Assembly (NCBI RefSeq): GCF_041287625.1
Contig: NZ_JBGGNH010000073.1
Location: forward strand, 165,430-189,429
Source of the DNA: Ideonella sp.
GTDB taxonomy: Bacteria > Pseudomonadota > Gammaproteobacteria > Burkholderiales > Burkholderiaceae_C
Reading direction: 5' to 3'
DNA length: 24,000 bases
The notes below the pieces were generated by a model. That model did no database searches. It saw only the letters and a list, made by a program, of their open reading frames with translations, and had not been told where the DNA came from. How positions within the stretch are numbered: the first letter of the stretch is position 1; every line of letters starts with the position of its first letter. The translations under genes and the position numbers were made by a program. Below are positions 4,594-13,669 of this stretch, one piece after another.

Positions 4594-7500
4594 ATGAGAA
4601 GAATTGCATTTGCCACGCTGTACCGTGCGCAACCGCGTGAGCGGCAGTGCGTGATCGAGGTCGTCGAGTTGGACCTGCCGGCGCAGTCTGCAAGCCGATA
4701 CGTGGTGACGCTGCGCCAGGGCTTGCTCAAGGGCGGCGTGGTGCTGGACCCTCAGGAGTCTTCGCTGACCGCGAGGCCCTGCACGCTGGACGAGGCCCAG
4801 CGTCGCGCGATTGACTTCATTCAACGCCGGCTCGCCGCAGCCGAACGGCTGCAACAGCACGAGGGCCTGCCCGGCCTCGCCACTGCCGAACCGCCTGCGC
4901 CATCGAACGCCGCTGCCGTAAAGGCGCCGGCCAGTGACGCCGTGCCGCCCAGCATCGCTGCGCTGGTGGCCCGCTTCGCTCCCGAGCGCTGGCAACTGCT
5001 GCCGGCATCGCAGTGGTCCCGCGCCGTGTGGCGCGTCGCCGAATGCAGCGATGCTGCCGGTGGTGCGGGCCAGCGTGCGCTGGTGGCGCTGGTGCCGCGC
5101 CTGGTCGAACTGCTGGAGAGCGGCGACGACCTGCTGGACCTGTGCATTGCCGTGGCCGTCGCCCGGCTGGGCGACGGCGGTGCCGCGGTGGCGATGCAGG
5201 CGCTGGCAGGCCGAGGCCGCAGCCCGGCCACGCGGCGCACGGCGCACCAGGCCTGGCTGATGCTGCAAACGCCCGAGGCCCTGCGCGCGCATGCCGAGGG
5301 CCTGCTGCCCGAGTGGCAGGCCGAGGTCGAAAGCAGCGAGCGCAGCGTGGCGCAAGTCGCTGCGCTGCAGGACCGCGTGACGGCCCGCGGGCCGGGTTGG
5401 GTGCCGCTGCTGGGCGACTGGTATGACCTGGCGCTGGTGCGCCCGGCGGCGCGGGCCAGCCTGCTCGCATTGCTGGCCGAGTTGCCGCTGCAGCCCGGCC
5501 CGTTCCAGGCACTGCGCTACCTGTACAAGGCAGCCGAGATTCGCCGCGATGCGCCGGTGCTGGGCCTGCTGCATGCACGCTTCGAGAACACTCGCGCCTA
5601 TTTCAACCGCCCGGCCTACAGCGGCAACGGCTTCACCGATCCGGCCACAAAGCGCTGGGTCAAGACCCCCATTGCCAAAGAACTGAGCCGGCCCCAGCCG
5701 CGCCTGGCCTACAGCGACGCAACACGCGATTACCTGCGCCTGCGCGGCTGGCGCACGCTGCGGCGGCTGGCGGCCATCGGTCACTCGCACGCACCCGAGT
5801 TGGCGGTGCAACTGCTGCTTGGGTTGGCGGACGATGCGTTGCCAGCGGCGCGCGTGGAAGCCCGCTGGGATCGCGTCGAAGGCCGGTACCAGCGGCATGA
5901 CCGGCAGTACCACCCTGCCGCCTACTGGCTGCTGGTGCCCAAGCTGCTGCTGGCGCAAGCGCCGGGGGTGCATGTGAGCGCCCGCGGCAAGCGCTGGTGG
6001 ACCGACCAGCCGCTGGACACCAGCGCCGCGCTGCCCCAACGCAGCGAGGGCCTGCAGGACATGTGGAACGCCCACCCTGAAGCGCTGCTCGCATTGGCGC
6101 TGCAAAGCCGCAGCGCGCTGGTGCATGCGGTGGTGGCGAGGGCGCTGCAGGACCACGCCGGGTTCGTTGCGCAGCAACCGGTGGCCGTGCTGAAGGAGCT
6201 GCTGCAAAGCGCGCATGCGCCGACTGCCCGCGTCGGCTTCGAAGCCGTGCGTGCCCGCGTGTTGGCCAGCAGTGCGCTACAGGACCAGGTGCCGTGGCTG
6301 CTGCTGCTCGTGCAGAGCAGCGACGGCGCGGCCCGCGAGTTCGCCTTCGTGCACATCGCCTCGGACCCGGCCGGCTTTGCGGCGCATGCCGAACTGGTGG
6401 TGGCACTGCTGCTGTCGGCCCACGAACGCACACGGCGCCAGGGCCAGGGCCTGGCCTTGATCGCCTCGGCGCCGGCCCTGGTCAACGAACTGCAAGGCGC
6501 GCTGCTGGCCGCCGATGCCGATGCCCCGGGCCTGCGCGACGGCCTGGTGCTGGTGGAACAGTTGCTGCGCGGCCCGCTGGCCGAGGCTGCGGCGCAAGCG
6601 CCGACCGAAGCACTGCTGTGCCTGCTCGACCATGCCGACGCCGGCGTGCTGCACCTGGCCGTCGTGTGGCTGCTGCTGCATGCCCATGGCGCCGCGTTGG
6701 TGGCGCCGGCCACGCTGGCGCGGCTGCTGGTGGACGAGGACCCTTACCGCCGCGCCTCGGGTGTGCGGCTGCTCGCGGCACTGCCTGACGAGGTGCTGCG
6801 CACGCAGGCCGAGCTGCTGAGCGACCTGGCCGTGAGCCCGCATGCGGGCATTCGCGAAGCCTTGGCGCCGGCCTTGCTGCGGCTGGCGGACGACCCGGCT
6901 TTCGCCTCGGCCCTGGCCGCTCGACTGCATGCCTCGCTGTTCACCAGCGAGACCGGCGACGGCCAACACGAGGACGCGCTGCGCTGGCTCACCACCACGC
7001 TGCAGACCCATGCGCCTGCGCGCGACGCCTCGGGCGCCTGGCGCGCATTGCATGCGCAAAGCGCGGGCGCGCAGCTTTACGGCGCCTGGGCATTGGCATC
7101 TCTGCCCAGCACCGAGTTCAGCCTCAAGCAACAGGCCACGCTGGCCCGCCATGCGGACGCGGCTGTGCGCGCCTGGGCGATGGCCGCAATCGACCGCACG
7201 CTGCCGGCGGTGCCCAGCCCGGAACAGTCTGCCCAGCTCCTGCCGCTGGCCGACACGCTGTTCGACGACGCCCGCGCCTATGCCCACCAGTTGTTCGCCG
7301 AGCGCCTGCCGGATGCAGCGCTGACGCCCGAGCTGCTGATCGCCTGGGTCGACCACCCGCAGCCCTGGGTGCAGGCGCTGGGCCGCAGCCGCCTCGTGCG
7401 CCGCATGGCCGCCGGCGAGGCCAGCCTGTGCCTCACCCGGCTGAGCCAGCACCCGAGCGCCAGCGTGCAGCTCTTTGTCACGCAATGGCTGCTGGAACTG

Positions 7501-7827
7501 CCGCGGGACGACGACGCCCAGCTCGCGGCGCGCCTGCGCGAATTGACGCCCTACTTCCTCACCGTGCTGAGCCAGGTGAACCGCAGCCGCGTCGCCAAGT
7601 CCCGCATCACCGCCTTCCTGCGTAAGGCGAGCGACGCGCCGCAAGCCGCTGCAGTGGTGGCCGAGATCTTTGCGCGCCAGGTGGTGACCTGCAGCCTGAC
7701 CGACAAGCCGCAATACATCGCCGGGCTGCGCGACATTGCCGCGCACCATCCGCAGATCGCCCTGCCCTTCATCGCCTGGGCGCCGCCACCGGTGCGCAGC
7801 GCGGCCAACGCCACGGAGGGCGCATGA
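4594..7827 (+). CDS. Large (1077 aa) Leu/Ala-rich helical-repeat protein with a degenerate WGR-like N-terminal domain (MolR/YehI-like partner of SWIM proteins)
   Basis: ATG is preceded by GGAGGAG. GC3 is high throughout. The N-terminal ~90 aa have WGR-like topology (CVIEVVELDL...RYVVTLRQGLLKGG...LDEAQRRAIDFIQRRL), but the W-G-R triad reads R-Q-G. The rest is HEAT/ARM-like repetitive helices. The stop overlaps the next gene's start (ATGA). Confidence 0.75.
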   Translation: MRRIAFATLYRAQPRERQCVIEVVELDLPAQSASRYVVTLRQGLLKGGVVLDPQESSLTARPCTLDEAQRRAIDFIQRRLAAAERLQQHEGLPGLATAEPPAPSNAAAVKAPASDAVPPSIAALVARFAPERWQLLPASQWSRAVWRVAECSDAAGGAGQRALVALVPRLVELLESGDDLLDLCIAVAVARLGDGGAAVAMQALAGRGRSPATRRTAHQAWLMLQTPEALRAHAEGLLPEWQAEVESSERSVAQVAALQDRVTARGPGWVPLLGDWYDLALVRPAARASLLALLAELPLQPGPFQALRYLYKAAEIRRDAPVLGLLHARFENTRAYFNRPAYSGNGFTDPATKRWVKTPIAKELSRPQPRLAYSDATRDYLRLRGWRTLRRLAAIGHSHAPELAVQLLLGLADDALPAARVEARWDRVEGRYQRHDRQYHPAAYWLLVPKLLLAQAPGVHVSARGKRWWTDQPLDTSAALPQRSEGLQDMWNAHPEALLALALQSRSALVHAVVARALQDHAGFVAQQPVAVLKELLQSAHAPTARVGFEAVRARVLASSALQDQVPWLLLLVQSSDGAAREFAFVHIASDPAGFAAHAELVVALLLSAHERTRRQGQGLALIASAPALVNELQGALLAADADAPGLRDGLVLVEQLLRGPLAEAAAQAPTEALLCLLDHADAGVLHLAVVWLLLHAHGAALVAPATLARLLVDEDPYRRASGVRLLAALPDEVLRTQAELLSDLAVSPHAGIREALAPALLRLADDPAFASALAARLHASLFTSETGDGQHEDALRWLTTTLQTHAPARDASGAWRALHAQSAGAQLYGAWALASLPSTEFSLKQQATLARHADAAVRAWAMAAIDRTLPAVPSPEQSAQLLPLADTLFDDARAYAHQLFAERLPDAALTPELLIAWVDHPQPWVQALGRSRLVRRMAAGEASLCLTRLSQHPSASVQLFVTQWLLELPRDDDAQLAARLRELTPYFLTVLSQVNRSRVAKSRITAFLRKASDAPQAAAVVAEIFARQVVTCSLTDKPQYIAGLRDIAAHHPQIALPFIAWAPPPVRSAANATEGA

Positions 7828-9533
7828 AGTTCCAGTACCGCTACTACGGCAGCACCTCGGTCGATGCCAGCGACACCACGCAGGCCTTCAGCCTCGCGCC
7901 GGACACGCTGCGCCCGCCCACCAGCTTCCAGGGCGAGCTGCGCCGCAGCGGCGGCGTGCACCTGGCGTTCCGCGAAGCTCTGTCGGCGCTGCATTCGGTG
8001 GTGGTGAGCGACCAGCGCTACCGCGGCCGCGACCCCTCGGCCTACAAGACCTGGCTGGAGGCCAACGAGAACACGCTGCTCACGCAGTACATGCAGCAAG
8101 CGCAAACGCTACGTGCCGAGGCGAGTGCCGTCACCAGCGAGCTGAAGACCCTGCGCAACCAGAAGGACACGCTGCTGCGCCCCTTCTACATAGCCAGGCA
8201 GAAATACTTCAACTGGCTCTACCTGGCCAACCGCGACGCCTGGTACGTGTTGGACCCGGTGATCACCGTACACCCCGAGCGCCTGCTGTTCGAGGCCTTC
8301 AGCCAGGACGAGTCCAGCTACTGCGCGGTGAGCGTCAGCCACAACGTGTTCAGTCGCACTGCCGAGATGGCCTGCGGCACGACCAACATCGACTACTCCA
8401 TCGGCCTGTTCGACGAGTTCCAGAAGATTCGCGACTACAAGGCCACGAGCTTCCAGGTGGACCCGGCCGGCTTCAGCGTGGCCACCGGCAGCGACCCGGC
8501 CTTCCGCGAAGAAAAGATCGACCTGCCCGACAGCTGGGTGCGCGGCTTCCTGCAGGTCTCCAGCGCGATGACGCTGCCGGCCACCGTGCTGGAGCTGCAC
8601 CCGATGGACCTGCACAACCTGTGCGCCACCTTGCGCCAGCACAAGGAACGCGCCGGCCCCCGCTCGCTGCGCTTCGAGCTGTCGCCGGGCCAGCCGGCCC
8701 GCCTGGTGTTCGAGCCCTGGGGCATCGAACTCACGGCGCGGCGCAGCGCCATCGTCGGCACGCCGCTCAGCGAGCCACGCAGCATCCGCCTGTGGGGCCG
8801 GCGCCGGCTGCTCACGCTGGAGCGGCTGATCGCGCTCGCCACCCGCGTGCGGGTGCACCTGCTGGGCACCGGCATGCCGAGCTTCTGGGTCATCGAGATG
8901 GGCGAGATCAGCGTCACGCTGGGGCTTTCGGGCTGGACGGCCAACGACTGGTCCGCCGCCGGCCGCTTCAACCTGCTGGCACCGCGCCACACCGTGAGCG
9001 CGGCCACCAAGCAGGCCGTGGCCGCGGCGCTGCAGCGCGACTGGGTGGCCACGCCAGCCGAACTCGCCGCCCGCACTGCGCTGCCCGAAGCGGACGTGAG
9101 CGCCGCGCTTGCGCTGTGGGTGCAGGCCGGCCGCGCGGTGTACGACCTGCCGGGCCAGCGCTACGCCTGGCGCGAACTGTCGCGCGAACCTTTGCCGCTG
9201 GAAACGCTGCGCTTTGCCAGCCCCGAGGAAGACGCGGCGCTGAAGCTGGTGCAGGCGCGTGGCGGTGTCACGCTGAAGGACATCGGCGCCAGTGGCGACG
9301 GGCAGCTGCGCATCACGGGCACGGTGAAGGACGGCAAACGCGAGTTCTCGCCATCGCTGCTGCTGAATGCCGACGAACAGCTGCGCGACGCGCAATGCGG
9401 CTGCAACTTCTTCCAGCAGAACAAGCTGCGCCGCGGGCCGTGTGCGCACATGCTGGCGCTGCGTCAGGTGGCACAACCGAAGTTGAATGAAACCAGAACA
9501 CAGCGCGCCGTGACGGCTGGAGAAGCGGCATGA
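7824..9533 (+). CDS. SWIM zinc-finger family protein (YehQ-like)
   Basis: C-terminal CxCx12CxH signature CGCNFFQQNKLRRGPCAH at nt 9397-9450. The ATGA overlap with the upstream gene indicates translational coupling. GC3 is high. Confidence 0.9.
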   Translation: MKFQYRYYGSTSVDASDTTQAFSLAPDTLRPPTSFQGELRRSGGVHLAFREALSALHSVVVSDQRYRGRDPSAYKTWLEANENTLLTQYMQQAQTLRAEASAVTSELKTLRNQKDTLLRPFYIARQKYFNWLYLANRDAWYVLDPVITVHPERLLFEAFSQDESSYCAVSVSHNVFSRTAEMACGTTNIDYSIGLFDEFQKIRDYKATSFQVDPAGFSVATGSDPAFREEKIDLPDSWVRGFLQVSSAMTLPATVLELHPMDLHNLCATLRQHKERAGPRSLRFELSPGQPARLVFEPWGIELTARRSAIVGTPLSEPRSIRLWGRRRLLTLERLIALATRVRVHLLGTGMPSFWVIEMGEISVTLGLSGWTANDWSAAGRFNLLAPRHTVSAATKQAVAAALQRDWVATPAELAARTALPEADVSAALALWVQAGRAVYDLPGQRYAWRELSREPLPLETLRFASPEEDAALKLVQARGGVTLKDIGASGDGQLRITGTVKDGKREFSPSLLLNADEQLRDAQCGCNFFQQNKLRRGPCAHMLALRQVAQPKLNETRTQRAVTAGEAA

Positions 9534-9552: not shown

Positions 9553-9781
9553 GGGTGCAGCGCGTTGGCTCTTGCAATCCGGGCGATGTTTCGTCGCCCT
9601 TGCCAACCGCCTGTTCATGCGTCACGGGTGCCGTCTTCACTGTGCCGCGCTCGCGCCCTGTGCGCAATTGCGGTTGGGCTTGTCTCAAGCCAATTGGCGC
9701 ACAGGGCGCGGCGCGGCGTCGAGTGGACAGCCCCCGTCCTCGGAGCCCCTCGGGCTCTTCGATGAGAAACGCGCTGCACCC
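9553..9781 (+). ncRNA. Retron msr-msd non-coding RNA
   Basis: a1 GGGTGCAGCGCGTT (9553-9566) is the perfect reverse complement of a2 AACGCGCTGCACCC (9768-9781). GG at 9567-9568 lies directly 3' of a1 and is the candidate branching G. There is an msr hairpin GGGCGA/TCGCCC (9581-9599). The msd long stem pairs 9644-9670 with 9691-9717 (7+14+5 bp, two 1-nt bulges), and a second hairpin GAGCCC-ctc-GGGCTC lies at 9743-9757. a2 ends 29 nt before the RT ATG. Confidence 0.8.
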
Positions 9782-9810: not shown

Positions 9811-11736
9811 ATGAGCGGCGAGCGTCAACCGACCCGCGCCGAGCTGATCGCGCGCATTGCCGCGTCCAGCAAGGACGCCGTGGTGCTGAAGGAAATGCAG
9901 CGCTCGGGCTTCTGGCCGAAAGATGCCGCCGCCCCGACCGTCGAAGCCGCGCTGATCCAGCGCGAAGCCGAGCTGGTGCAGGTGCTGAACAAGCTGCAGG
10001 CCGAACTGCGCGAGAAGGGCGACCCGCAGGCCGCGCTGAAGGCCATGCGCCAGCAACGCATGGCCGAGGCCAAGGAACGCCGCGAGGCCACCGCGCAGAA
10101 GCTCGAACGTGAACGCTACGAACGCGCGCTGCAGTGGCGCGAGCGCAGTCGGCATGAGATCGGCTACCTGGGCCAGGGCGTGTCGGCCGGCTTGCAGCCG
10201 CGCCCGGACAACGCAGGCTCGCACGAGAAGCTGCAGCGCCAGGGCCTGCCATTGCTGGACACGCCACAGGCACTGGCCGATGCGATGGGCGTGCCGGTGG
10301 CCGAGCTGCGTTTCCTGGCCTTCCACCGCGAGGTGGCGCGCACGCAGCACTACCGCCGCTTCTCGCTGCCGAAGAAAACGGGCGGCGTGCGCACGATCAG
10401 CGCGCCGATGCCGCGGCTCAAGCGCGCGCAGTACTGGGTGCTGGACAACGTGCTGGCCAAGGTGACTGTGCATGCGGCTGCGCACGGTTTCCTGCCGGGC
10501 AGGTCCATCGTCAGCAATGCCGCGCCGCATGCGGGCCAAGCGGTGGTCATCAACCTGGACCTGAAGGATTTTTTCCCCAGCGTCGCCTACCCGCGCATCA
10601 AGGGCGTGTTCCGCGCGCTGGGCTACAGCGAGGCCACGGCCACGCTGCTGGCCCTGCTGTGCAGCGAAAACGTGTGCGACGAACTGCAGGTCGACGGCGA
10701 GCGCTTCTTCGTGGGCCGCACCGCGCGCGAACGTGTGCTGCCGCAAGGCGCACCCACCAGCCCGATGCTGACCAACATCCTGTGCCGCAGGCTGGACAAG
10801 CGGCTGCAGGGCATTGCCACCAAGCTCGGCTTCACCTACACCCGCTATGCCGACGACCTGAGCTTCTCGGCCTCGGGCGAGGCCGCCAGCCTGACCGGGC
10901 GCCTGCTGCGCCAGGTGCACCACATCCTGAAGGCCGAAGGCTTCACGCCGCACCCTGACAAGCAGCATGTGATGCATGCTGGCCGCCGCCAGGAGGTGAC
11001 AGGGGTTGTGGTCAACAAACAGCCCGCCGTCTCTCGCGAGCAGCGCCGTGCGTTGCGCGCCGCGCTGCACCGCGCAACGCACCAAGGCGTTGAGGCCGCC
11101 ACCTGGCAAGGCGAACCCGCCGCCCGCAATGTGCTGCTCGGCTACGCCCAGTTCGTCACGATGGTGAATGCCAGGCACGGCGCGCCGCTGCTGGCGCAGG
11201 CCAAGGCGCTGCCTTCGGCGGCCTCCGCGCCTTCGGCGATGACGAAGGCCGTGCCGTCAGGCCAGTTCCGCCGGCACGCCGCTGAAGGCAAGGCCCCGCC
11301 GCGCGCCAATGGCGCTTGGTGGCAGCCGGCGCCAAAGCCCGAGCCGGTGCTGCTGAAGACGGCGGGGCAGATCAAGGCCGAACGGCAGGCCCGCCTGGCT
11401 GAGGTGCGCGCCGAGCGCCAGGCCGCGAAGGTCACGGCGACCCAGGCCGCAACCCCTCGCCGCTTGCCGCGCACTGCCACGCCGCCTTCCGCAGCCGCAG
11501 CCAGTGACCTGCAGCAGGAGACCCACGCCCCGCTGCTGCCTCGCATGCGCTGGGAGATCGCTGCAGCCCAGGTGGCGATGCTGATCTACCTGTCGGTGCG
11601 TCTCAAGAGCCCGGGCCTCTTCATGATCGGCTCGCTGTGGCTGGGCTGGCGCGTGATGCGGCGCAAGTTCGGCTGGACGGGCTACTTCGTGGCGATGCTG
11701 GTCATCGGGGTCGCGGCGCTCATGCTGCGGCTGTAA
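9811..11736 (+). CDS. Retron-type reverse transcriptase with N-terminal coiled-coil extension and C-terminal transmembrane domain
   Basis: Motifs collinear with Ec86 RT: NAAPHAG (NAxxH), VINLDLKDFFPSV, LPQGAPTSPMLTNI, YTRYADDLSFS (YADD), QEVTGVVVN (VTG). GGAG lies 10 nt upstream of the ATG. An extra ~140 aa N-terminus is present. The last 65 aa contain 2-3 hydrophobic helices (IAAAQVAMLIYLSV, GLFMIGSLWLGW, GYFVAMLVIGVAALML). Confidence 0.93.
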   Translation: MSGERQPTRAELIARIAASSKDAVVLKEMQRSGFWPKDAAAPTVEAALIQREAELVQVLNKLQAELREKGDPQAALKAMRQQRMAEAKERREATAQKLERERYERALQWRERSRHEIGYLGQGVSAGLQPRPDNAGSHEKLQRQGLPLLDTPQALADAMGVPVAELRFLAFHREVARTQHYRRFSLPKKTGGVRTISAPMPRLKRAQYWVLDNVLAKVTVHAAAHGFLPGRSIVSNAAPHAGQAVVINLDLKDFFPSVAYPRIKGVFRALGYSEATATLLALLCSENVCDELQVDGERFFVGRTARERVLPQGAPTSPMLTNILCRRLDKRLQGIATKLGFTYTRYADDLSFSASGEAASLTGRLLRQVHHILKAEGFTPHPDKQHVMHAGRRQEVTGVVVNKQPAVSREQRRALRAALHRATHQGVEAATWQGEPAARNVLLGYAQFVTMVNARHGAPLLAQAKALPSAASAPSAMTKAVPSGQFRRHAAEGKAPPRANGAWWQPAPKPEPVLLKTAGQIKAERQARLAEVRAERQAAKVTATQAATPRRLPRTATPPSAAAASDLQQETHAPLLPRMRWEIAAAQVAMLIYLSVRLKSPGLFMIGSLWLGWRVMRRKFGWTGYFVAMLVIGVAALMLRL

Positions 11737-11824: not shown

Positions 11825-13669
11825 ATGCGCGCCATGTTTGCGGAAGCCCCCCGTTCGCCGCCCTCCTCTTTCCTGCCTGACCTGGACCGCCTCGGCGATG
11901 AGGCGACCGACCTGGCGCTGCGCCGCGAGGCCATCCGTTTCACGATGGGGTTCGTCTGGCACAGCGTGCCGCTGATGGGACTGGTCGTGGCCATGCTGCT
12001 GTGGCTGGTGCGCCACCGGCCGGAGGCCTGGGCGCTGGCCGGGCTGGTGGCGCTGCTGGCACTGGTCAGCTGCAGCGGGCGGGTGCTGCTGCAGCGCGCG
12101 AGCCGCCAGGCGGAGCTGCAGGAGCCGGTCGAGCTGCGCCGTTTCGAGCGCCGCATGGCCTGGTACCACGGGCTCTGCTGCGCGGCGTGGATCATTGCCA
12201 CGCCGGGCGTCTATCAGTTCCTTGATTCCGAGGGGCGCGCGGTCTACACCGTGCTGCTGATCGGCTCGGCTTCGCTGTCGGGCTTCTACATGGCCATGGC
12301 CGCGCGCTGGGGCGAAGCGGTGCTGCTCTCGGTGCTGGTGCCGCTGGTGATCCAGACGCTGCTGCCCGACACTCGTTCATGGCCGATGGCACTGGTCGCG
12401 CTGGCTTTCCTGGCCGGGCTGTGGCGAGTGCTGCATGCCGTGCGGCGAACCACGGTACTGGCCATCCGCCGGGGCTTCCAGGCCAATGTGCACAACCAGA
12501 CGCTGCGCGAAGCAATGGCCCAGGCCGAGGAAGCGGCAGCCGCGAAGTCGCGCTTCCTGGCGACCATGAGCCATGAGATCCGCACGCCGATGAACGGCGT
12601 GCTGGGCGCGCTGAGCCTGCTGGGCGGCGCGCCGCTGGCGCCCGAAAACGCCAAGCTGCTGGAGGTGGCCCGGCAGTCCAGCGAAAGCCTGCTGGACGTG
12701 CTGAACGATGTGCTGGACTACTCCAAGATCGAAGCCGGCCACCTGGACCTGCACGACAACCCGGCCCAGCTGGCGCAGCTGGCCGGCGGCGTGCACACCT
12801 TGTTTGCCGCCAGTGCAGATGCGAAAGGCCTGCCGCTGAAGCTGGTGATGGCCCAGGGCCTGCCGGGCTGGATCAGCGTGGACGAACACCGGCTGCGCCA
12901 GGTGCTGATGAACCTGGTGGCCAATGCGCTGAAGTTCACGCCTGCGGGCGGCGTCACGCTGCGGTTGCGGCCGGCGGGCATGAGCGGCGGCCAGCCGCTG
13001 ATCCGCTTCGAGGTGGAGGACACCGGCATCGGCATTCCGGCCGAGCGCATGTCGCAGCTGTTCCAGCCGTTCCAGCAGGTGGACCAGGGCCACCAGCGCG
13101 CGTTTGGCGGCAGCGGCCTGGGCCTGGCCATTTCGCAGCGGCTGGTGGAGCGCATGGGCAGCCGCATCGACGTGCGCAGCGTGCCCGGCCAGGGCAGCTG
13201 CTTCGGCTTCACGCTGCGCCTGCCGCTGGCCCATGCGCCAGCCGCGCTGCCGGTGGCGCCGGTGGCGGCGGCCGCTTCGTCGCTCAGCGGGCGTGTGCTG
13301 GTGGCGGAAGACAACGCGGTGAACCTGATGATCGCCGCGCAGCTGCTGCGCGACATGGGGCTCACGGTGCTCGAAGCGCGCGACGGCGAAGAGGCGTTGG
13401 AGACCCTGCGCAGCGCCGCGGTCGACTTGGTGCTGATGGATGGCCAGATGCCGGTGATGGACGGCTACGCCGCCACGCGGGCCTGGCGCGCCCACGAGCA
13501 GGCCAACCGCATGCCGCGCCGGCCCATCGTGGCACTCACGGCCAATGCGCTGCCGGAGGACGTGCGCATGGCGCTGGACGCCGGCATGGACGACCACCTC
13601 GCCAAGCCCTACGGCCCGGGCGAACTGAAGGCGCTGCTGGCGCAGTGGCTGCCGCCCACGCCGGCCTGA
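11825..13669 (+). CDS. Hybrid sensor histidine kinase/response regulator
   Basis: N-terminal multi-TM region; H-box SRFLATMSHEIRTPMNGV; HATPase motifs (NLVANALKFT, DTGIGI, GGSGLGLAIS). The C-terminal receiver domain has VLVAEDNAVN, DLVLMDGQMPVMDG, LTANAL and HLAKP. Confidence 0.9.
   Translation: MRAMFAEAPRSPPSSFLPDLDRLGDEATDLALRREAIRFTMGFVWHSVPLMGLVVAMLLWLVRHRPEAWALAGLVALLALVSCSGRVLLQRASRQAELQEPVELRRFERRMAWYHGLCCAAWIIATPGVYQFLDSEGRAVYTVLLIGSASLSGFYMAMAARWGEAVLLSVLVPLVIQTLLPDTRSWPMALVALAFLAGLWRVLHAVRRTTVLAIRRGFQANVHNQTLREAMAQAEEAAAAKSRFLATMSHEIRTPMNGVLGALSLLGGAPLAPENAKLLEVARQSSESLLDVLNDVLDYSKIEAGHLDLHDNPAQLAQLAGGVHTLFAASADAKGLPLKLVMAQGLPGWISVDEHRLRQVLMNLVANALKFTPAGGVTLRLRPAGMSGGQPLIRFEVEDTGIGIPAERMSQLFQPFQQVDQGHQRAFGGSGLGLAISQRLVERMGSRIDVRSVPGQGSCFGFTLRLPLAHAPAALPVAPVAAAASSLSGRVLVAEDNAVNLMIAAQLLRDMGLTVLEARDGEEALETLRSAAVDLVLMDGQMPVMDGYAATRAWRAHEQANRMPRRPIVALTANALPEDVRMALDAGMDDHLAKPYGPGELKALLAQWLPPTPA

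Follow-up and report, generated by a model that had tools for sequence, protein, structure and literature searches.

A type XIII retron reverse transcriptase of Ideonella sp. with a conserved three-helix C-terminal tail, a probable membrane tether

The window analysed here, a stretch of 24,000 nucleotides (nt) from Ideonella sp. (assembly GCF_041287625.1, contig NZ_JBGGNH010000073.1, positions 165,430 to 189,429 of the forward strand), carries a retron reverse transcriptase (RT) gene, the product of which continues past the enzyme core into a hydrophobic tail of 65 amino acids (aa). This tailed RT is a real, conserved fusion, widespread and not unique to this genome, and it was not found in the retron literature searched. 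In our opinion, the C-terminal tail of this type XIII retron RT is probably an integral-membrane anchor, which tethers the enzyme and is not itself the effector. The insertion into the membrane, its topology and the purpose of tethering are what we infer from sequence comparison and structural modelling. All features described below are located on the forward strand (+).

Architecture of the reverse transcriptase and its tail

The RT gene (9811-11736) consists of 641 codons and a stop. Among the retron models of PADLOC the best match was RT_XIII (E 1.4e-178, aa 4-505), with RT_other as the runner-up (4.9e-104), and Pfam RVT_1 was matched at aa 187-400. The RT_XIII profile includes the N-terminal helical extension (aa 1-150; 9811-10260) typical of type XIII RTs, which was modelled with long helices at aa 44-113. 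The RT core with the thumb (aa 151-470; 10261-11220) was delimited by Pfam and PADLOC matches, the AlphaFold2 model, superposition on the Ec86 RT and the C-terminal ends of tail-less homologues. AlphaFold2 was run on the full-length RT with an 87-sequence alignment (mean predicted local distance difference test score, pLDDT, 87.9; predicted template modelling score, pTM, 0.72), and the modelled core superposed on the Ec86 RT with a TM-score of 0.78-0.80 on target; no solved structure was found for type XIII retron proteins. Tail-less type XIII homologues (approximately 465-490 aa) terminate opposite about aa 470 in the alignment, their C-terminal extensions being 0-5 aa long, which agrees with the end of the core near aa 470 proposed in a first-pass annotation of the window made from the letters alone.

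The 3'-terminal stretch 11539-11736 corresponds to codons 577-641 plus the stop of the open reading frame (ORF) 9811-11736. The GC content at codon positions 1/2/3 was 0.71/0.48/0.88 for the RT core as against 0.62/0.46/0.94 for the final 66 codons, and stops interrupt both alternative frames across the tail stretch. On account of this codon-position GC and of the stops in the other two frames, the tail is translated in frame with the RT, and the earlier view of the RT and its hydrophobic tail as one polypeptide, encoded in a single 641-aa frame with high GC at third positions (GC3), was borne out.

The tail itself (aa 577-641; 11539-11733) was defined by the AlphaFold2 model, by conservation and by a ratio of nonsynonymous to synonymous substitutions (dN/dS) of 0.38. 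Of the two to three hydrophobic helices anticipated in the last 65 aa, three were modelled at a pLDDT of about 96, each of 17-19 residues: helix 1 (H1) at aa 581-598 (11551-11604), helix 2 (H2) at aa 601-617 (11611-11661) and helix 3 (H3) at aa 622-640 (11674-11730). Their hydrophobic character stood for helix 3 but was less uniform than claimed, helices 1 and 2 being marginal in this protein. Only helix 3 passes here the classic 19-residue Kyte-Doolittle threshold (1.95); helix 1 rises above the threshold with a 15-residue window, and the uncharged cores of helices 1 and 2 span 14 and 12 residues, respectively. In most homologues the helix 1/2 region exceeds the Kyte-Doolittle threshold, and across the family the helix cores are nearly free of charges with a mean Kyte-Doolittle value of 1.6-2.1. 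Eisenberg <H> of the tail helices amounted to 0.36-0.61 with a low hydrophobic moment. Lysine and arginine residues number 2.7 per sequence in the H2-H3 loop vs 0.8 in the H1-H2 loop across the family, a distribution that fits the positive-inside rule; because basic residues concentrate in the H2-H3 loop, the predicted topology is N-terminus in and C-terminus out, with the RT in the cytoplasm.

Between the core and the tail, a disordered linker of about 105 aa had been proposed. Some 25-35 residues of it proved to be a variable Ala/Pro spacer, but aa ~486-546 are conserved, confidently modelled and contain an invariant WW. The conserved part, termed here the WW block (aa 486-540; 11266-11430), follows the pattern FR..A.G..P......WW.P.....P....T..Q....R with a long helix thereafter, and was recognised by conserved columns, a pLDDT of 80-97 and dN/dS of 0.16. 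F486, R487, G493, P496, W503, W504, P512, T517, Q520 and R525 are invariant or near-invariant, and the model retains a pLDDT of 80-97 over residues ~486-546, with the helix at 518-546. The subsequent Ala/Pro-rich spacer (aa 541-576; 11431-11538) was delimited by length variation (16-52 aa across homologues), composition (A 24%, P 17%), low pLDDT (<50 at 549-573) and dN/dS of 1.09. In the RT of Pelomonas lactea (locus L045) the WW block and the tail are separated by a long (Gly-Ala)n repeat, which indicates that the spacer evolves freely.

The counterpart of W503-W504 (window 11317-11322; WWQP) in tail-less homologues is the ..KKWWKLF peptide at their extreme C-terminus. In several phyla, many type XIII RTs without a tail possess, after a Pro-rich spacer, the conserved C-terminal end [KR][KR]WWK[LVI][FW] (loci L026, L029, L030, L033, L034, L041, L042, L050, L057 and L063; proteins P0129, P0131, P0137, P0138 and P0141), and in P0137 a NusA_N domain intervenes between the RT and the WW peptide. 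This peptide could serve for docking of a partner or for peripheral binding to the membrane.

Conservation of the tail and other tails in type XIII RTs

Conservation was assessed with the 120 best database homologues and an alignment of 87 sequences. About 115 of the 120 are proteins of 615-720 aa with the tail, as expected of a fusion that is conserved among RT homologues; query coverage was 97-100% in almost all, and their C-termini share the same three hydrophobic segments. Tail-bearing homologues derive from Roseateles, Aquabacterium, Ideonella, Delftia, Xenophilus, Caenimonas and Diaphorobacter. In the 87-sequence alignment, tail columns 575-637 are gap-free and the most conserved residues are W622 (99%), Q587 (97%), R618 (93%), F/Y625 (83%), G607 (80%) and S600 (79%). 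In comparison with the closest orthologue, from a congeneric genome, dN/dS increased from the RT core (0.09) through the WW block (0.16) and the tail (0.38) to the spacer (1.09); values for L045, L004 and L010 were saturated and therefore not used. Delftia homologues (e.g. P0114, 658 aa) align through the tail, their tail identity being only ~20-25%. Two homologues end differently: P0079 (Roseateles chitinivorans, 603 aa) is without the normal tail and has an Arg-rich end that looks out of frame, and the close homologue P0053 (582 aa) breaks off where the tail begins; these ends may be frameshifts, partial records or occasional tail decay.

The nine RT_XIII matches over the full profile that were obtained from 401 genomes of the same order were all situated in open frames of 627-726 aa. 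Two further RT_XIII matches, from another order, were added by sampling 401 genomes across the phylum; their frames of 631 and 642 aa end in two-helix hairpins. It should be added that within the genus the tail was detected in only 4 of the 25 searched genomes, this one included. No stand-alone copy of the tail was revealed by the tail profile in the 401 genomes of the order, where significant matches occurred only within RT frames; short-frame matches with E between 1e-3 and 1e-2 are what chance would give in 401 genomes. The possibility that translation starts internally at M579 and yields a free tail peptide was rejected, position 579 being unconserved (Val is the commonest residue, 31%).

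The tail could not be assigned to a described family. Searching 37 tail sequences against Pfam (E <= 1) returned no family and only scattered noise (Wzy_C, TrbC), and neither PADLOC (aa 471-641) nor PHROGs gave a match for the tail. SLATT was not matched in Pfam by the full protein (E <= 0.01) or in PADLOC by aa 471-641 (E <= 0.1); it was also absent among the 25 listed of the 30 Pfam families matched by the 37 tails (E <= 1), very remote homology being conceivable for helices so short.

Furthermore, a wider survey was performed by HMMER search of 1.84 billion representative proteins combined with hydropathy analysis. Hydrophobic C-terminal tails were present in 26 of ~55 representatives with the N-terminal extension of type XIII, and their architectures comprise three-helix tails, two-helix hairpins, single C-terminal helices, multi-pass tails and a domain of the RDD family (Pfam). 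Tails of these other RT_XIII proteins are non-homologous to the three-helix tail. Five representatives of different tail types matched RT_XIII in PADLOC with E 1e-159 to 1e-191, and the type XIII assignment of metagenome RT relatives with added modules refers to the five that were scanned against PADLOC. In the RT-core tree the tailed forms fall within one clade of 38 rows (26/38 tailed; Shimodaira-Hasegawa-like approximate likelihood ratio test, SH-aLRT, 94), which also includes tail-less members, and well-supported branches force at least 3 changes of tail state. The same C-terminal slot is occupied by RDD in P0133, P0135 and P0140, by TerD in P0181 and by NusA_N in P0137, and P0163, P0173 and P0178 possess hydrophobic segments at the N-terminus; these RDD, TerD, NusA_N and N-terminal hydrophobic modules are unlisted in the 2020 classification.

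Among 80 loci of named genomes from many phyla, tails occurred only in Enterovibrio, Photobacterium, Undibacterium and Pelomonas, and the sampled RTs from Myxococcota, Cyanobacteriota, Planctomycetota, Verrucomicrobiota, Bacteroidota, Acidobacteriota and Bacillota had no tail; one tailed representative came from a Bacteroidota metagenome-assembled genome. A separate small transmembrane (TM) gene following a tail-less RT was conserved in only two of 69 loci of other phyla, both myxobacterial, and other hydrophobic ORFs after the tail-less RTs of these loci look unrelated or spurious. In Archangium (L030:4415-4672) and Hyalangium (L033:8546-8794), a conserved ORF of 82-85 aa with a single TM helix is located 5-31 nt past the RT stop and encodes an N-terminal hydrophobic helix followed by a conserved soluble part (..LPR.QAEESLARH..). 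Its product may act as a membrane partner, encoded separately from the RT, in some type XIII retrons of myxobacteria.

The retron operon and the role of the tail

To our knowledge, no retron family has been known for longer than type XIII (Mx162, 1980s). Judged by its gene content and order, the locus in the window is a complete retron of this family, with WGR-HEAT/ARM and winged-helix (WH)-SWIM genes, msr-msd RNA and RT. The WGR-like/HEAT-ARM accessory protein (1077 aa; 4594-7827) matched PADLOC WGR_XIII over its full length (E 6.6e-268), with weaker HEAT-ARM_XIII matches, and the stop of its gene overlaps the start of the gene for the winged-helix/SWIM zinc-finger accessory protein (569 aa; 7824-9533; PADLOC SWIM_XIII E 1.7e-215; Pfam SWIM at aa 517-546). 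In the 277-nt gap between the latter and the RT gene, a perfect 14-nt inverted repeat encloses long nested hairpins, and for this reason we interpret the gap as a retron non-coding RNA (ncRNA) layout: the putative msr-msd gene (9553-9781) would consist of a1 (9553-9566), a2 (9768-9781) and a long msd hairpin (~9624-9737). Rfam contained no matching family for the msr-msd region, only a chance microRNA match being returned. Type XIII corresponds to RT clade 10, with Retron-Mxa1/Mx162, Mxa2/Mx65, Sau1/Sa163 and Nex2/Ne144, and its accessory proteins are SWIM cluster 114 and WGR-like HEAT/ARM cluster 216 (PMC7736814).

The SWIM gene was kept directly upstream in all 10 tailed loci that had upstream DNA, and tail-less type XIII RTs have the same partner genes; the tail is thus an addition to the three-gene system and not a replacement for an effector. 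The self-contained abortive-infection effector suggested in the first-pass annotation is not supported by these data, the RT being the last gene of a three-gene type XIII retron. The next gene downstream (11825-13669) encodes a hybrid histidine kinase that has no obvious connection with the retron, and neither a terminator nor a promoter was found between the two genes. This kinase gene is also located 3' of the orthologous RT in the congeneric genome (G003, locus L002), which places the retron at the same chromosomal position in both genomes. The genome under study (G000) harbours, in addition, a second retron-type RT of another type (contig C23:54993-56033), matching RT_XIII only with E 9e-87 over profile positions 105-433, with one in-frame TGA within the match.

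According to the mechanism that we propose, the N-terminal 470 residues would be a cytoplasmic RT, with the adjacent msd RNA as its template for multicopy single-stranded DNA (msDNA), as family membership suggests. Residues 486-546 with the invariant WW would form a conserved block beside the enzyme, followed by a flexible Ala/Pro spacer of ~30 residues. The three short helices would then insert into the inner membrane with the N-terminus and the basic H2-H3 loop on the cytoplasmic side and the C-terminus outside; helices 1 and 2 would either cross the membrane or fold into a re-entrant hairpin. The tail would hold the RT-msDNA particle at the inner membrane face and, via the RT, also the WGR-HEAT/ARM and WH-SWIM partners. 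The output of the system is probably delivered by these partner proteins and not by the tail.

Varied hydrophobic tails at one position would favour tethering over a specific pore. Tethering is favoured because non-homologous hydrophobic modules, single helices included, recur at this position, because the tail changes rapidly in sequence but preserves its hydrophobicity and a few interface residues, and because a flexible spacer of variable length precedes the tail. Fast sequence change with retained hydrophobicity is typical of anchors.

Several points weigh against the tether. The hydrophobicity of helices 1 and 2 is only marginal here, with unweighted Hessa sums of 6.3 and 8.0 vs 2.2 for helix 3. 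The conserved polar and small residues within the helices (Q587, S600, G607) exceed the needs of a plain anchor and would also suit a module that oligomerises and forms a pore. The RDD domains fused at this position are genuine multi-pass domains rather than mere anchors, and swapping of diverse TM modules is also seen for membrane effectors of other defence systems. Moreover, the papers searched contained no mechanism and no phage-defence test for type XIII.

The reading of the tail as effector we consider possible, though on balance doubtful. The RT-msDNA would keep the tails apart at rest, and infection would alter the msDNA or the partners, resulting in RT oligomerisation, a depolarising pore and abortive infection. 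Such a role would account for the near-invariant Gln in the middle of helix 1, the Ser/Gly packing positions and the stripe of R618, W622 and F625; exchange of TM modules at one position is typical of effector swapping, and RDD domains are truly multi-pass. Separate proteins with two to three TM helices act with other RTs, as in type IV/Ec48 (PMC7736814) and for SLATT with UG17/DRT10 (PMC9226505). Nevertheless, two large conserved partner genes are always retained in tailed loci, the same partners serve tail-less type XIII retrons, and some relatives have only a single C-terminal helix. The fast evolution of the tail sequence and the lack of similarity to SLATT, to the retron type IV effector, to holins or to any PADLOC, Pfam or PHROG family also speak against an effector. 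If true in its strongest form, with the tail as an msDNA-gated pore, this would be the first retron with the RT polypeptide itself as the membrane-disrupting effector.

A broader proposal, which we put forward only as a speculative and rather unlikely one, is that the site of action of the type XIII class of retrons is the cytoplasmic membrane, and that their RTs have repeatedly gained interchangeable membrane modules (single helix, hairpins, three-helix tail, RDD). The widespread ..KKWWKLF C-terminal peptide of tail-less members may then represent this kind of tether in a weaker, peripheral form.

It is improbable that the helices reside outside the membrane as a hydrophobic bundle for RT oligomerisation or for docking into the HEAT/ARM partner. 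The shortness of helices 1 and 2, with their uncharged cores of 14 and 12 residues and marginal hydrophobicity here, and the very high AlphaFold2 confidence for the tail, as in a packed bundle, would suit this arrangement, as would the co-evolution of the RT with the HEAT/ARM protein (PMC7736814). It is opposed by the family-wide helix cores, almost uncharged and with Kyte-Doolittle values of 1.6-2.1, by the unmistakable TM tails and RDD domains at the same place in related RTs, and by the distribution of basic residues, which conforms to the positive-inside rule.

Finally, that the tail is a read-through or assembly artefact, i.e. that a lost stop or a frameshift joined a spurious high-GC frame to the RT, might be entertained in view of the plentiful long spurious open frames of high-GC genomes and the aberrant ends of P0079 and P0053, but it is effectively refuted by the conservation data: over 100 proteins of independent genomic and metagenomic origin keep the tail, with near-invariant residues and without indels. 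A GC3 of 0.94 at coding-like GC2, dN/dS below 1 and high AlphaFold2 confidence also speak against it.

Comparison with known systems

Searches of the full-text literature returned nothing relevant on a membrane-anchored retron RT or on the mechanism of type XIII. The main text of Mestre 2020 gives no fused domain and no membrane association for type XIII RTs; it reports RT-fused domains for types I-C, VII-A1, XI and XII, and membrane proteins for types II, IV and X (PMC7736814). In the 2026 SPIRE survey, where none of the other retron groups compared is distributed as broadly at phylum level as type XIII, the words 'membrane' and 'transmembrane' are absent (PMC13712802). The classification, which assigns type XIII RTs no fused module, should gain TM tails, RDD, TerD, NusA_N and the conserved WW peptide. 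A recurring RT tether of varied architecture suggests where the msDNA particle and the WGR/SWIM partners act, and for retron engineering a membrane-anchored RT would differ in behaviour from the soluble enzymes in current use.

With the described type XIII retrons (PMC7736814) the locus shares the RT_XIII core with the N-terminal extension, the upstream WH-SWIM and WGR-HEAT/ARM genes, and the msr-msd between SWIM and RT. Unlike tail-less type XIII RTs, the protein has about 170 extra residues past aa 470, made up of the WW block, the spacer and the three-helix tail.

Retron-Eco6 (Ec48) of type IV resembles it in the functional link of a retron RT to a small multi-helix membrane module. In type IV, however, as the first-pass annotation had correctly stated, the membrane effector is a separate protein: the two-TM protein is encoded by its own gene with a signal peptide, accompanies a clade 3 RT and is the sole effector (PMC7736814, Table 1). 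Here the tail is fused to a clade 10 RT, has no sequence similarity to that protein and coexists with two other partner genes. The locus is not of type IV, the RT being type XIII, the downstream gene a hybrid histidine kinase and aa 471-641 without a PADLOC match.

An extra module after the RT thumb is likewise found in types I-C (Toprim; Ec67-Eco2), VII-A1 (DUF3800), XI (protease) and XII (TIR). These are single-gene systems with soluble enzymatic domains, whereas here three genes are present and the 65-aa hydrophobic tail has no recognisable catalytic domain. The SLATT proteins that accompany UG/Abi RTs (UG17/DRT10, AbiA, UG23; PMC9226505) are comparable as small membrane modules of two to three helices beside defence RTs, but they are separate genes in defined Pfam/PADLOC families, none of which is matched by the tail described here (E <= 0.1-1).

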